Origin: Lytechinus pictus
Lineage: Eukaryota
DNA: 64,000 nt
Assembly (NCBI RefSeq): GCF_037042905.1
Contig: NC_087251.1
Span: 35,900,001 to 35,964,000 of the forward strand
Direction of reading: 5' to 3'
In this document: in pieces, positions 30,663 through 64,000 of the stretch
How the letters are laid out: every line of letters begins with the position of its first letter
Position numbering within the stretch: position 1 is the stretch's first letter
Notes under the pieces: generated by a model
Databases searched by the model: none
The model's input: only the letters and a program-made list of their open reading frames with translations
What the model was told of the DNA's origin: nothing
Position numbers and translations under genes: made by a program

Positions 30663-31238
30663 ATGCCTCCTAATCGCAAGCCAGAAGACACTCTCTTGAA
30701 GAAACCCCTCACGCTGGGTCTCAGCCAAAGTTTCCCCAGTTCTGCGTTATCGACTGCACTGAAACAAGTCAAAATCGAGATGGAGGATACAGATTTGCCC
30801 GACCTGAGCAGCAGCTGCTTTGGAGCCATTCGAATGGACAAGGGCCCGCTGGACGACGATGAACTGAAGCCCCTCGGGTGGTTGCACACCACGAATGTTC
30901 TTAAAGACATCAATTTGGACGATGATGATGACGACGATGAGTCGTACTCGAAGGAAAACGACGTTGGTAGCAATACGTATAATGGTTATGGATACCAGGA
31001 CGATCCTATGGACCCACATCGACATATTAACAGCAAACCTCCTTTTTCCTTCAGCTGCCTCATATTCATGTCGATAGAGGACTGCCCTCTAAAGCGTCTT
31101 CCCGTCAAGGAAATCTACAGGTACATTCAGGATCACTTTCCATACTTCCGCACGGCGCCTACGGGCTGGAAGAACTCAGTGCGACACAATCTCTCTCTCA
31201 ACAAGTGCTTCCGAAAAGTCGACAAAATCAAGGGACAA
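30663..31238 (+). CDS. foxN2/3: FoxN2/3 forkhead transcription factor, first coding exon (192 codons; exon begins at 30647 with 16 nt of 5'UTR)
   Basis: Polypyrimidine tract plus acceptor gtccag ends at 30646. Perfect Kozak GCCACCATG with an in-frame TGA just upstream. Encodes [11 protein letters not shown] (cf. the FoxN EELTNLNWL motif), an acidic run, and the forkhead N-terminal part [64 protein letters not shown]. Phase-0 donor CAA|GTAAGT at 31239. The ORF-track tail after KGQ is intron read-through. Confidence 0.96.
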
Positions 31239-37146: not shown

Positions 37147-37270
37147 GGTGAGCATTTCATGAAAAGTGTTGTCATTCATTCTCACTGACTATTGTTATAA
37201 GCTATAGGAAATCCTTGCATCTGATTGGCTGAGAGCAAATTAGTTGGTGAAAATCACAGATGTAAACCCC
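37147..37270. mobile_element. CCAAT-containing short MITE, opposite orientation
   Basis: GAGCATTTCATGAA start and AATCCTTGCATCTGATTGGCTGAGAGCAAATT body are homologous to 56576-56715. Degenerate relatives lie near 8960-9015 and 48000-48090. Confidence 0.65.
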
Positions 37271-39670: not shown

Positions 39671-41498
39671 TCTTTGGTTTGGTCATTTTATTCACCCATC
39701 ATTCATTTTGCAAAAAAAAAATGAAAATGACCAATTGCAGAATACGTCTTTATGAAATTTGAAAAATCTTTCTTGTTATCATAAAGATAAAGAATTATGT
39801 TAACTTTTTTTGTAATATTCATTGATTTTGTCTTATAGTTGTTGGGTCAACGCTCAATAAGGCTATCTGCCCTTTTTTGTTGGCCCCTCATTCTCATAAA
39901 TATGTTTTTTGTATGTTGTCACAATGTTTTACTTATGTACCTTATGTATGTTTTTCATGTTTTTATTGAGAGTGTAAATAAATTGAATAAAGAATCGGAG
40001 ATAACAGAACTTCTACCACAGTACTTTAGATGGTAATTCTGCAAATGAATATGATATTCCTGAATATCCATACATCAGATTTTTTTTTTTCATAGAAAAA
40101 AATTGAAGGAAAAATCTGCTGTGAACATTAATACAACCTTGTCAACTTGCCAATGATTGCGTTAAGGTATTTGGTTACAATACAAACAGGACTGAATCAT
40201 ATGTTACAGATGCATTACAATGTAGTTATCATATTGAGCAACATAAGGTGGGGAAAAAAAGAGCCAAAAAATTGTAAAAAAGGGGAAAGGTGTGATTTTA
40301 TTATGAGGTACAATGCTGCTCCGATGTGAGAGAATCTCCCAAAATGGGAATGCTATTCATGGGACTCTCCATCGTTCTACATCAGACGTGTGAAGCCGTC
40401 AAGGGGTACACAAACGCACGTTGGTTCAAAGCGAGAACTGGGTGCGAAGATCAATACGGGTATTTGCAAGCGATGGAATGAGTGGGAAGAGAGGGATACT
40501 AACGGAATGGGAGGCTAGGATGTAGGCTAATGCAATGTGAGAATTTGATAATGGGTTTTAGACTGAGCTTGGGTAAAGTATAAAACCTATGAATAATATT
40601 AGGATTAAAAAACAATCCATTATGCCTAAATATTTCTGTTCATCTGATGGTAATTTCAATGCTATTAACTCTTATAGTTTCATAAAAAAATAAAAGTCCC
40701 TAATTTGCCAGAGCACATGGTACAAGACAAGATTTATTGTTCCAGTGCATTGTGGGTAATGCATCCAAGATATGCACCAAACATACCATAAATATCACCA
40801 TCGCATGCGGTCACATATCATATTTCCTCCATAAAGTGACACATCTTGACGAGGGTATGTACTGAGCCAAAAATACATCTTCTTGGCAGGAATTCCATCA
40901 CACCGTGAATCATCACGGGCCAGGCATTCGGAAACATTTTGTTGTTGATGTTGAGTGCTCTCTTTGTCTTTCGTCATGAGCCCGTTGGTTATTCATTGAT
41001 TTGTTGGTTTCAATTATGTTGTTTTACTTGAATGATATGAGATTATAATCTGCCACGAGTGATGCGTTGTGGAAAGAGATGATTGAGTGGGCCTATTCCA
41101 TTATGAGCGATGCTTGCAGTCACCACCTCTCACACTGCTCGGTTTCAGAGTATCATGAAGACTGAGAGATAAGATGTGCAGGGAAAGGAGTCATCGGTAC
41201 CCACAGAACCCCCCCCCCCCATGACCTCTAATCAAGATTCACTGACATTTATTATATCTCCCCTCTCCAGAATTCTGTCTAAAAGAACGCAATCCAATAA
41301 AAAGTATGAGAAATATGAAGAAAAAAATGTAGTGGAATACTTTATCCTCAAATAGCTGTTATTATTATTGGTATTTTGAATCACAAATGGATGAAGTGAA
41401 GAGCTTACATGATTAATCTACAAAATAAAAATGTATACCTTCATTCTAATGTCTTAACTCAATAGTTTTTCCCATTATTTCCCTCTTTCTCTATCTAG

Positions 41499-41650
41499 TC
41501 ATTAGGTAAAGGTTCATTATGGTGTGTGGATCCCGACTACAGGCCCAACCTTCTTCAGGCTCTGCGAAAGACACCGTACCATCCTTACCATCATGTCCTG
41601 CCATACTCACCCTATGGTTTCTCAGGAGGACCACTTTCCAACATCTCAAG
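41499..41650 (+). CDS. foxN2/3: FoxN2/3 second coding exon (completes the forkhead wing)
   Basis: Acceptor ttccctctttctctatctag ends at 41498. Phase-0 translation [50 protein letters not shown] matches the FoxN2/N3 GKGSLWCxDPxYRxNLxQALKKTPYHP signature. Donor AAG|GTATCT at 41651 (phase 2). The 3' boundary is less certain because the donor is triplicated. Confidence 0.92.
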
Positions 41651-42027
41651 GTATCTAGAGTTGTTCTTACCTTCATGTTCATACCCCCTCCGAACTCTGA
41701 ACCACCACTCCAACCCCCTTCCCCTCTCTTACCCCTTAACCCCTCCCTAATACCTTACCATCCGTATCATCATGTCCTGCCATACTCACCCTATGGTTTC
41801 TCAGGAGGACCACTTTCCAACATCTCAAGGTATCTAGAGTTGTTCTTACCTTCATGTTCATACCCCCTCCGAACTCTGAACCACCACTCCAACCCCCTTC
41901 CCCTCTCTTACCCCTTAACCCCTCCCTAATACCTTACCATCCGTATCATCATGTCCTGCCATACTCACCCTATGGTTTCTCAGGAGGACCACTTTCCAAC
42001 ATCTCAAGGTATCTAGAGTTGTTCTTA
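41573..42027 (+). repeat. 179-bp tandem repeat, ~2.5 copies, spanning exon 3' half + donor + intron start
   Basis: The donor AAG|GTATCTAGAG recurs at 41651, 41830 and 42009. Copies are near-identical and followed by a poly-C tract. Confidence 0.97.
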
Positions 42028-45000
42028 TCCCCCCCCCCCCCCCCCCCCCGGACAGAACTAAGCAAGGGCTTAGGGAAAATAGCGCCCTCAACCAAAAAAT
42101 GTACCGGGATTTCTGCCTTTACTGAGTGTTCTCATGTTTTTATGCTTCTAGTTTGCTTCTATTTCTTCTTATGTTTTTTTCAGTTCATTTAGCCCCATCA
42201 ATTCCTTAATGAAAATAATGTAAAATATTGTTCCTTGACCTGAAATAACTTAAGTCTGGAACTTACCAAATGATCTCTTCCATTGTCACAATCTGCCCCC
42301 CTCCTCCAAAATGTTAAACAGTTAAATGAACCAATGAAAAGGAAAAAAATGAGCAAAGTTTGATGAAAATGAAAGACAAACTGACTGAGAGATCTTGTTT
42401 GGACAAATTTGTTGTGTGTGCGAGAGTGTTTGCGAGAGTGTTTGCGCTGCACTTCAGTGCAAGTCTTTGAATTCTCCATCAGAACACTTGCCTTATTCAA
42501 ATTTTCAAGGATTCGCCAAAGAGAAATGCAAAGTTTATCACTCCTAAACATCTTTTCATATATCGCCTCTGATACACGATAAGAAGGCCTATGTTGTAAA
42601 AGAAAGTCGACCTACATTTGATAAATGATATCTGAATGATGCAAATATTGATTCCCAGTCAAATTATGGTACTTCATTATTTGAATAGATGTAGCTTTAT
42701 CACATTTCAAAATTTATAATCCTATCTTCTAATTTATTCAACCTTGGGCGAAACCCCTTTCGTGGGATATTAAACTGTATGTACACAAAGAATATAATCC
42801 AATGGAGATAGATTTATTAAATTTTTAGTGCTTCAAAAAGTCTTTAACTTCCTGGGTTAAATTTGGCTCAAACGATTCCTTGAATCATAATAAATTTTAT
42901 GAGTATATTACATGGAGGTATCTCCGTATGTTTCAATTTATCGGCATTTGGGTTATAAAGGAATAATTTATTAATCTAGTTTAGATGGGGGCCTTTTGTC
43001 TGGATTTGGGAATCTTGATTTTAACTCCTTTTATGGGACATAAAATGATTTTAATGATGCAAGATGAATAAATATGGAGACTACAAATTTATCAATTGGT
43101 ACAAATGAAAATGGGTTTTAGTAGAGTCTAATCAAATCAAATCAAATCTCTCTATATCTTCCTCCCAAAGTATGCCAGCGTTCTTTGCAGGCTGTCATTG
43201 TGCAAACATAGCTACATTTCCGCACACCATATTTGCAAGTATGCATTTTGGTGTGAATTTGAATTTGCTTAAGGTGTCAGAGTCAATGGAGTATGGACAT
43301 CAGAACATGAAGAGGAAGCGACCTGCATGTCAAACATTTGTTATCATGGTTGAATAAATGTGTGTGAACGTTAAAATAAGAATGCAAATGCAAAAAGAGG
43401 TAAAACTTTGTCCAATGCCCCACCCATCTACAAACTTTCAAAGTTGTCACTGATTTTATACCATCTTGAGTACAGAAAAAAAACTCCTGGTACTTTCTGA
43501 TGGGGATTCTTCCCAGGTCGGAAAAGGCCAGAGTTTTCTCCAGTGTGAAAATATGATTATTGTTTTTGTCTTTCTGTGATTTGATAAAATTAACTTAGTG
43601 ACCAGATATAGGGAGAAGTCTATTCATTTTTTCCCTATTTTTTATGTCAATGAGTTTTCTTTAAAGATTTTTTGTGAAAGACAAGAGGGGTTTGACTATC
43701 CTTCCCATTTTACCATTTACTTTAATACCCATGTAAGAACTCGGAACCAATACCGTGAAGTGAAATTGCAAAAAAAACATGTAAAAAATAGTATAATTAA
43801 ACAAAAACATATAAAGAAAAGAATCAGACTATGATAATGGGGTTAAACGGGGGATGACTCTTCAATCATTATCCTTTTATGCGGATTTGGGATATTGCTA
43901 ACCAGAGAGAAATTTTCTGACAATGAATGGTCAAGGCGATGATGTGTAAATATTGACCAGTCTGTTCCTGTGGTTGTTCAATGATCTGAACACTAATTAC
44001 CTGATCAACTCAAGGACTTGTAAGTGTATGATTGTGGCTATGGGTGCATTTATACGTACGTTTAGAAAACAGAATAAGTGAAATGCAGAGGGCATAGTGA
44101 GATCAGAGGTACTGTTAATGAGAATATCTCTTTTTTTTAAACTAATTAAGGAGTTTATAGAGAGTCAATTTTTGCATATTTCCTTGTGGTACATGTGAAG
44201 CGTCTCTTGCATTCATGCCTCCATATGCAGTGTGAATCTGTTCTTAGAAAATAAAAAGTTGAGTATAAATGCACCCTTTATATTATTGGCCATCATAACT
44301 GATAGTTGTGAATCAGAGAAAATAAAACATACATTTAAAACAAACTTCTAGTTCAACTAATCAAAGGGATTTTATTAGATTTGAAGTTTAAGAAGATACT
44401 GTATTTTTCTTTCCCATTTTATGATGGAGATTGTACCTGTAAAATGAAAAGGTTGTTTTTTTTTTCCGAATGAATGTTTCCTTTAAAAAAAATATATTTT
44501 TACGAGTTCCTGACATTATTATTTTTACAAGTTCCCGAAATTGTGTTTCCAACTATTCAGTTGAATGTTACAATGGATGTCCTACATGGAAAGGGCCTTT
44601 ACAAACCAAACCAAAAAAAAAGGCATCCAGTCACAAAAAGCTGTCAACTGTCATAAAGGAATCACCTGACTTTGATTAATGTATTCCCAGGGTGCAGTTT
44701 GCAGAATCCCCAAAAGTGGAATTATTTGATCAGATTTCAGAGGGCGCAGGGATTTTCGGGTAGCATGATCCCTGCCCTCTGTAAGTGAACCATAGATATT
44801 GCATTGATCCCTTCTTGAAATATTTCTCAGAGGTAAAGAAGAAAAAAAGTGTTCTGAAGAAAATTGAGATGGATGTAGGGGGAATGGCGAGATATGAGAG
44901 CTGTTAAACATCTAGGGTCCTTTTTCATCTTGGGGATTTATAATGATCTGTTGGGATTTCATGAATTGTTTATTGTCAATTGTCAAAGTATTTACAGTCC

Positions 45001-45309
45001 TATTACTTTGTTTACTGATGGTTATGATAGTTGTTTGCAAGTGAGGCAAAAGTACTCTCCACTATCTGAAAGGTAAGTTGTTAGTATTTTCTCTAATTTC
45101 CCTGTTTATATTCACTTTCTTGTGGCCATCTGGATGAGAATTGTATTCACAGTACAATCTCTTTATAATATTTGTGTAGATATCTAGGCATGAATTGCAT
45201 ATATTCCAGAATGTCTTTCCTACTGCGTCTATGCTAGTTTGGGTTTATTATAAGTCAATTGTCTTATTGACGTCTCTGTTTCTCTCTTCTATTCCTTTTT
45301 TTTAAACAG

Positions 45310-45365
45310 CAATCAAAACAGGCTTTCTACAGTTCTCTCAGCTTACAATGGAGTTCCCATTCCAG
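45310..45365 (+). CDS. foxN2/3: FoxN2/3 probable third coding exon (56 nt)
   Basis: Long pyrimidine tract plus aaacag acceptor ends at 45309, and donor CAG|GTTAGT is at 45366. Phase 2 in, phase 1 out. Open frame (S)NQNRLSTVLSAYNGVPIP joins exactly to both neighbouring exons. Confidence 0.72.
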
Positions 45366-48836: not shown

Positions 48837-49085
48837 CAGTCAAACCTCTCTATTGGGGCCATATCCACGGGGAAAAGAAAAGTGGCTCCAGGGGCCCGTA
48901 ACACAAAGTGTAGCAATGATCGTAGAACAATTTTCTGCGATTGATTGCATTGACCACAATGTACAATCAATCGTGATAATCAAGTGTACGATCAATCGCT
49001 AACCTCTGTGTTACGGAACACAGGAGACCATTGGCCTCTACAGACAGGTGACCATTATGGTGGTGACTAAAGACAGGTTTACACT
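48837..49085. mobile_element. Old Tc1/pogo(Tigger)-like MITE interrupted by the 129-bp MITE
   Basis: Ends CAGTCAAACCTCTCTA ... TAAAGACAGGTTTACACT form an imperfect inverted pair, with an internal AGACAGGT repeat. Confidence 0.55.
48892..49020. mobile_element. 129-bp MITE with CAG TSD (Harbinger-like), copy 1
   Basis: TIRs GGGCCCGTAACACAAAG / CTCTGTGTTACGGAACA, CAG on both flanks, colinear with the copy at 63370. Confidence 0.85.
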
Positions 49086-56575: not shown

Positions 56576-56715
56576 GGGGAGCGTTACAAGAACTGTTTTA
56601 TCAGTGATATTTACTGACAAATTTGTTCTCGGCCAATCAGATGCCAGGATTCTCAGTTGCTTATAACATTTATCAGTAGAAATCACTGACAAAAACTATT
56701 CATGAAACACCTCCC
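56576..56715. mobile_element. CCAAT-containing short MITE
   Basis: Imperfect TIRs GGGGAGCGTTACAAGA / TCATGAAACACCTCCC. The body GCCAATCAGATGCCAGGATT is the reverse complement of the copy at 37147. Confidence 0.7.
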
Positions 56716-63100: not shown

Positions 63101-63178
63101 CTCACATAGCATTGGTAGAGAGACTTCTCAACAGCCAACTGACTCATAACCAGTCCCATCAAAATGGTCTCGATCTTG
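63101..63178 (+). CDS. foxN2/3: FoxN2/3 probable fourth coding exon (78 nt); gene continues past the window
   Basis: Strong acceptor ttccttgtttcttgatttcctctacag ends at 63100, and donor TTG|GTAAGC is at 63179. Phase 1/1. Open frame (A)HIALVERLLNSQLTHNQSHQNGLDL is in frame with the 56-nt exon. No stop codon is reached. Confidence 0.72.
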
Positions 63179-63369
63179 GTAAGCCCAAATCACATTATAG
63201 ATACCGGTATCAGATGGGTAATATAAAGCGATTTGTAAAGTTATGCACAACTTCGTGAACAACTTTACAAACAACTTTAACATGTCTTTAGGTGGTTGTT
63301 AGTCATTGGTCACCAGTCGGGCATAAAGTTATTCATATCTTATCGACAGCTTTATGAAACACCCACCAG

Positions 63370-63498
63370 GGGCCCGTAACACAAAGCTTAGCAATGATCG
63401 TAGAACATTTTTCTATGATCGATCGCATTGACTACAATGTACAATCAATCGTAAAAATAAAGCGTACGATTAATCGCAAACCTTTGTGTTACGGGACC
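63370..63498. mobile_element. 129-bp MITE with CAG TSD (Harbinger-like), copy 2
   Basis: TIRs GGGCCCGTAACACAAAG / CTTTGTGTTACGGGACC, CAG TSD at 63367-63369 and 63499-63501. Confidence 0.85.
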
Positions 63499-64000
63499 CA
63501 GGTAATGGAGATATAAATGGAAATTTTTAACAATGTCATGCCCCATCATTAAATTGTTGATTATTCCTAATTAAGAGCAGAAACCAATGTTAGAATTTAC
63601 ACAGAGTTTTTTTTTAGGACGTAAATAGTATTAAACTAATGCTTAATACTATTAGTACTATCCAGATAATCAATATGTTCAATACCATTCAGATCATATG
63701 AAGATCATAATTTAGGCAGCGGTTAGATTTTGTGCAAATTTTTTTTTTTGCCTCTTAATGCCCCAATATATTCAGATCATTTTAAAAATCAAAATTTTTA
63801 TTGCTTCTATGAATGTTGGTACTTGACCACGTACTGTTTGGAGGCTATTTTATCACCATGGCAATTACCATTTATTACTGGAATCATATAGGGAAGTGAG
63901 CTTGTTGGGTAAACATGATGACATGTGGCATAGACTTGTTCTGCGTTGTTGGTGATTGATGACCGGGGCCCTAAGCTCTTCAGTTCATTTTTTTCCCAAA

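Follow-up and report, generated by a model that had tools for sequence, protein, structure and literature searches.

Tandem repeats that copy a splice signal into an intron are known from lancelet and human genes. Among the amphioxus repeats, termed mirages, that of BflGb9 duplicates the 3′ boundary of exon 2 as a 157-bp segment and leaves splicing undisturbed, and BflGb6 has 6 and 3 mirage units on its two haplotypes (accessible part of PMC3087553). Further mirages have been described in PGBD5, Adh (Adh3), and troponin C (accessible parts of PMC3902484 and PMC3087553). Human genes contain comparable donor minisatellites. For the 37-bp VNTR in intron 7 of F7, an upstream-first rule of donor choice was shown with 50 constructs; two pseudo-sites are used in the minisatellites of IFI6 (6-16) and CBS, and none are used in those of LMNB2 (100 bp) and PDGF (81 bp) (accessible part of PMC1557585). 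Rogers-type intron gain also involves a duplicated splice signal, in this case an AG/GT proto-splice site (as summarised in the accessible part of PMC3087553). The accessible part of PMC10078293 contains no repeated-donor case, and a literature search with sparse coverage of subscription journals found no exon-boundary repeat of the mirage type in an echinoderm.

We identified an array that looks like a member of this known repeat type in the foxN2/3 gene of the echinoid Lytechinus pictus. The window (the whole 64,000-nucleotide stretch of DNA that we analysed) contains a single long-period array, at 41573-42027, among 22 Tandem Repeats Finder rows. The array has a period of 179, 2.5 copies, 98% matches, and a score of 889, and its three unit starts were also recovered by a separate repeat search of the window. 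The 179-bp units lie head-to-tail on the forward (+) strand, as do all exons and tracts described below. Each unit joins the terminal 78 nt of exon B (41573-41650) to 101 nt of intron. Repeat copy 1 (41573-41751) comprises the exon end itself, the authentic donor at 41651, and 101 nt of intron that is C-rich from 41670 and contains a TAA (41748-41750) that is in frame on read-through. Repeat copy 2 (41752-41930) is an intronic copy of the exon end with a pseudo-donor at 41830 and a candidate cryptic acceptor CAG ending at 41804. Repeat copy 3 (41931-42027), truncated to 97 nt, has a pseudo-donor at 42009 and a candidate cryptic acceptor CAG ending at 41983, and breaks off into a run of 21 C (42029-42049) that closes the array.

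The donors at 41651, 41830, and 42009 share one 9-mer, with the splice signal repeated intact in the intron. An earlier reading of this DNA, made from the letters alone (the sequence-only reading), had described a 179-bp unit present about 2.5 times with three identical donors, and both Tandem Repeats Finder and sequence comparison bear this description out. The array donors match the U1 consensus at 6 of 9 positions and the donors of exons A and C at 8 of 9. Three unit positions (4, 13, and 16) set copy 1 apart from copies 2 and 3, and all three are synonymous third-codon sites in the exon frame (3/3 synonymous has a chance probability of ~0.02). Copies 2 and 3 are identical across their first 97 nt.

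The same reading held that no acceptor is duplicated. This is correct for the real acceptor (41498) and incorrect for candidate cryptic sites, as each extra copy contains a CAG (41802-41804 and 41981-41983) that follows a 142-nt AG-free pyrimidine-rich stretch. The candidate cryptic tract is 73% pyrimidine and 36% T, compared with 82-86% and 55-64% at real acceptors. A GAG also lies 3 nt past each extra-copy CAG, and the intervals 41780-41829 and 41959-42008 could supply 25- or 22-nt frame-shifting microexons. Folding of 41560-42100 (z = -0.74) identified no structure that would mask the pseudo-donors.

An exon-edge echo is present at one of the eight exon edges tested in the window and absent at the other seven. 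Templated insertion of the C-rich stretch from nearby was considered and rejected, since elsewhere in the window it has no match beyond chance 12-mers. Within 11834-42049 there are eight homopolymers of C or G, 10-21 nt long; two of them (41209-41220 and 42029-42049) flank exon B and attract mis-laid reads. The window also contains two dispersed intronic repeat pairs, one direct (48888-49024 and 63366-63502, 88% over 137 nt) and one inverted (37155-37261 and 56600-56707, 77% over 108 nt), which are probably remnants of mobile elements.

Like the amphioxus mirages, the foxN2/3 array runs head-to-tail across an exon–intron boundary, has a similar unit size, repeats a splice signal in the intron, is accompanied by normal mRNA, and has inner units that are nearly identical, the differences lying at the edge of the array. 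Unlike them, it is found in an echinoid, lies in a developmental transcription factor gene, and has only 2.5 units. The array also resembles F7-type minisatellites: the first unit spans the exon–intron junction, identical donors follow the authentic one, and the upstream donor is used. The foxN2/3 unit is longer than that of F7, with 78 nt of coding exon as opposed to 4 nt, and is present in fewer copies. Copy-number polymorphism and pseudo-donor function upon disabling of the authentic donor are features of F7 that the foxN2/3 array may or may not share. As in Rogers-type intron gain, the unit holds AG/GT and a further CAG as a possible acceptor. In contrast to that process, no new intron or exon appears in RNA, and the duplicated segment is a real boundary and not an exon interior.

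Protein matches and the Pfam Forkhead profile confirm the earlier assignment of the host gene to foxN2/3 (echinoid FoxN2/3). FoxN2/3 is a factor of the mesoderm network that is expressed in skeletogenic and other mesoderm of urchins (accessible part of PMC3482387). Exon A (30663-31238) encodes the N-terminus and most of the forkhead domain, covering positions 1-68 of the 88 in the Pfam profile. Its frame is 93% identical to the Diadema setosum FoxN3-like protein P0001, 67% to Asterias, and 63% to Antedon. Exon B (41499-41650, 152 nt) encodes the end of the forkhead domain and then a Pro/Tyr/His-rich stretch, with P0001 residues 193-242 matching at 98% (tblastn). Exon C (45310-45365, 56 nt) was placed by tblastn of P0001, splice signals, and a GT..AG joint at 41650>45310. 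Exon D (63101-63177, ~77 nt) was placed by tblastn of P0001 and splice signals, and the remainder of the gene lies outside the window. Between 31239 and 63100, introns of 10.3, 3.7, and 17.7 kb surround exons of 152, 56, and ~77 nt.

Splicing from donor 1 keeps the frame open and agrees with three RefSeq Diadema proteins, which likewise run exon B into exon C. A 9-aa difference between D. antillarum isoforms was evaluated as an event at the array donor and rejected; the difference is far downstream. The vertebrate FOXN3 isoforms P0067 and P0068 differ by 22 aa, and a motif there resembles an invariant echinoderm EVDAAATMMMF block (P0001 residues 290-300). This block lies beyond exon D and would be absent from any truncated form.

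We compared four of the 23 sequencing runs found by a run search. X1 consists of contigs from organism A and was taken as RNA because the exon A-B, B-C, and C-D joins are present: the last 30 nt of exon A are joined to 41499 in one contig, and a loose end after 45365 matches the start of exon D. X21 and X22 are raw rRNA-depleted RNA from organism A, with ~6% of each run read. X6 consists of DNA-type contigs from organism B, a related species with an intron differing by 4-7%. Joints were listed only when three reads or a contig stood behind them, and contigs drop rare forms.

Five joints were listed across these four runs, and 41650>45310 is the only one with GT..AG ends. This joint is supported by one X1 contig (depth 32.1), 1 read in X21, and 2 reads in X22. 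Of the remaining four joints, three connect two C runs and the fourth is an insertion; the X21/X22 joints 41220>42029 and 42050/42051>41200 were rejected as mis-laid reads that link the two C runs and have C-rich junk as loose ends. The junction count proposed in the sequence-only reading was made without NMD inhibition, and 3/3 raw reads fell at 41650>45310. Among the five joints listed (four runs, three raw junction reads, no NMD inhibition), none starts from 41829 or 42008. The listed joints likewise include no 154- or 179-nt skip of the kind expected from a duplicated AG acting as acceptor or from a microexon, and a zero-length recursive step would leave no trace in mRNA. Depth in X21 and X22 is 0 at 41776-41919, with only 17 and 58 bases, respectively, at 41632-41775. 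With 0/3 raw junction reads distal, distal-donor use is bounded only below ~63%, and the middle copy is identical to copy 1 over the last 62 exonic nt, so that short junction reads cannot tell it from donor 1. Where visible, mature mRNA uses authentic donor 1; minor distal use is possible, the reads being few.

The reading frame agrees with two earlier predictions, namely a read-through stop at TAA 41748-41750 and a premature stop following distal-donor use. Donor 2, donor 3, and plain read-through all stop after 275 codons. With a distal donor, the exon C/D junction would follow the stop by 135 or 314 nt. A stop so placed before a junction is, by the usual rule, an NMD configuration, making the product an NMD candidate. 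The candidate microexons (25 or 22 nt, one or two) shift the frame in every combination and stop it at 278-285 codons. The read-through tail is aligned by none of 61 homologues, which provides no sign of a conserved truncated protein. The earlier suggestion of a possible dominant-negative effect of the truncated protein is doubtful. Growth suppression was retained by human FOXN3 that lacked the C-terminal domain and carried an added NLS (accessible part of PMC3937083), and a 275-aa FoxN2/3 thus need not be dominant negative.

We consider it probable that the array is a real, near-neutral tandem duplication of an exon–intron boundary, comparable to an amphioxus-type 'mirage' or F7-type donor repeat. 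The repeat and its presence in a second haplotype are directly observed, and the duplication (at least two units) is real genomic sequence and not a mis-assembly. X1 record 2 covers 41621-41797 (177 nt) with 0 differences and 0 gaps at depth 21.5, crossing the 41751/41752 unit junction. X1 record 3 (41973-42516, depth 20.1) contains the last truncated copy and the C run and has 12 substitutions and 34 gap letters; its haplotype is 2.3% different from the window, with no net indel across the C run. X1 may be related to the source of the assembly, and its main haplotype differs from the assembled one. In a k=31 de Bruijn simulation, two of six models fit the ends of the X1 contigs (a 177-nt loop at 41621-41797, a start at 41973, and a spliced start at 41621). 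In both, two or three units are present, the last copy carries a variant at unit position 73, and its donor stays unspliced. The fit was lost with the window unchanged, with one copy alone, with one allele of a heterozygote reduced to a single copy, and with splicing at the last donor. This modelling implies that X1 would carry the variant at position 73, and it fits a last-copy donor that stays unspliced on the X1 haplotype. The sequence-only reading had raised an assembly or haplotype artefact as an alternative, and copy 1 and copies 2/3 do resemble two exon alleles. We nevertheless give almost no credence to the entire repeat being an artefact of assembly or haplotype merging, because the exact unit junction occurs in public RNA contigs of a divergent haplotype and the single-copy model does not reproduce the X1 contigs; for the duplication itself, that alternative is refuted. 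It is unlikely, though less far-fetched, that the duplication is real but that its third copy arose through an assembly error or is an allele private to the window haplotype. Over 97 nt beside the 21-C run, copies 2 and 3 do not differ, and the X1 depths at the unit junction (21.5) and the last copy (20.1) are similar, which leans towards one junction per molecule and an X1 haplotype with two units. However, two-unit and three-unit models produce the same graph in simulation, and copy-number differences between haplotypes are normal for mirages, as in BflGb6 (accessible part of PMC3087553). An error in the third copy is also compatible with a real, near-neutral duplication and alters the count alone.

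Other alternatives concern the activity of the repeated donors. The sequence-only reading proposed that the donors compete, which is unsupported by the lone GT..AG joint at 41650>45310, the zero raw-RNA depth at 41776-41919, and the unspliced last donor in the X1 graph. Its further proposal that copy number tunes dosage is also unsupported, and is possible at a low level. In a regulated version of this idea, use of a distal donor or the 25-nt microexon would rise with copy number and lower the FoxN2/3 dose through unproductive splicing (AS-NMD). The donors are identical and weak (6/9 U1 match), all alternative products would end prematurely (275-285 aa), such products would be hidden by NMD, and pseudo-sites are used in some human donor minisatellites (accessible part of PMC1557585). 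Set against this are the absence of such an event from the five joints listed in four runs (0/5), the zero raw depth at 41776-41919, the failure of the spliced-last-donor model to match the X1 contig ends, and the lack of conservation of the product (0/61 homologues cover the tail), and we judge AS-NMD very improbable. At the exon B donor, X1 has an unspliced depth of 21.5 compared to a spliced depth of 32.1 (unspliced share 0.4), and the unspliced signal extends ~2.1 kb into the intron (41651-43830), ending near an A-rich tract with ATTAAA. X1 depth in the B-C intron is 20-41 over 42064-43647 (to ~43740), 7 at 43792-44367 (to ~44480), and 0 at 44512-45231, as opposed to 5-6 in the upstream intron. 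These values, together with the ATTAAA at 43796, would suit a stage- or tissue-specific read-through isoform, produced when the weak donor of exon B goes unspliced and polyadenylation occurs in the intron near 43800. Its product would be a 275-aa FoxN2/3 with the whole forkhead domain and without the C-terminal half; the repeat would lie in the coding tail and 3′ UTR, with or without an effect on the isoform. We regard both the isoform and this product as improbable. The drop in depth (~30 to 7) coincides with the A-rich tract (43758-43830), the longest in the B-C intron. A pattern of this kind usually arises when oligo-dT captures unspliced pre-mRNA, as would be expected at such a tract in an oligo-dT-primed library. 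Moreover, X21 and X22 together have depth 0 at 42064-43647, where ~30 reads would be expected at the X1 share, contigs reveal neither strand nor ends, and the tail is unconserved among 61 homologues. A broader proposal, slightly more doubtful again, is that the triplicated weak donor acts as a switch. Depending on stage or tissue, exon B would be unspliced or distally spliced, the transcript would end near 43800 and encode a 275-aa DNA-binding FoxN2/3 without the conserved C-terminal motifs, and the number of units on a haplotype would set the share. If true, a naturally occurring VNTR of splice donors would be influencing a node of the mesoderm network in echinoderms.

Under the favored explanation of a near-neutral boundary duplication, we infer an origin, an age, and copy-number variation. 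At 41585, an exon contig of X6 has G, as do copies 2/3 at unit position 13, and X1, X21 (4 reads), and X22 (3 reads) have T like the window. Unit positions 4 and 16 are not among the X6 differences listed, meaning that one of three copy-1 differences is matched to another species. By parsimony, copies 2 and 3 would retain an older exon allele, which could explain why the copy-1 differences are all synonymous. Breakpoint microhomology with the Pro-Tyr-His repeat of the exon may include unit position 4. The combination of edge differences and identical inner units matches the concerted evolution described for mirages (accessible part of PMC3087553). X6 depth in the array is 13.5 and 25.7, over the C-rich stretch, and the X6 exon contig is unbroken to 41661, which would argue against an identical second copy in organism B. 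A metagenome scan identified 18 loci with 69-91% identity over at most 38 of 50 residues; none of the 18 matches the intron at the DNA level and none is echinoid. One of these loci (L011, 1368-1516) contains a 143-nt, 87% self-match downstream of a foxN-like exon, possibly an exon-end echo.

We propose that slippage or unequal exchange placed a copy of the exon end and its donor in the intron; microhomology of the C-rich intron stretch with a 9-nt Pro-Tyr-His repeat in exon B would probably have initiated the event. The first duplication would be older than one or more synonymous changes in the functional exon. Since then, unequal crossing-over would have homogenised the units, and it probably shifts their number among haplotypes (two or three).

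Use of the 41650>45310 junction is directly observed, and we infer an exon-definition mechanism and near-neutrality. Exon definition by the spliceosome would pair the one real acceptor of exon B with the first donor, giving an exon of 152 nt and not 331 or 510 nt. Donor 1 would be chosen because it alone closes a 152-nt exon from the sole real acceptor, in agreement with the upstream-first rule of F7. The downstream copies would act as silent pseudo-donors, and normal FoxN2/3 would be made. Leakage to a distal donor or a 25-nt microexon would introduce a premature stop, and the transcript would be cleared. Several observations count against this explanation. It draws on three raw junction reads from ~6% of two runs with NMD active, and rare variants are lost from contigs. 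The ~40% unspliced depth at the X1 donor may indicate a slow donor. By analogy with human IFI6 (6-16) and CBS, in which some pseudo-donors are used (accessible part of PMC1557585), downstream copies could be active as well.

The foxN2/3 array is a small natural test of 5′ splice-site choice outside chordates, with three identical weak donors, one of which is marked by a haplotype variant. It also suggests that even a single developmental regulator gene can tolerate boundary repeats. The array would gain in importance if changes in copy number altered how much of the message is truncated or degraded.
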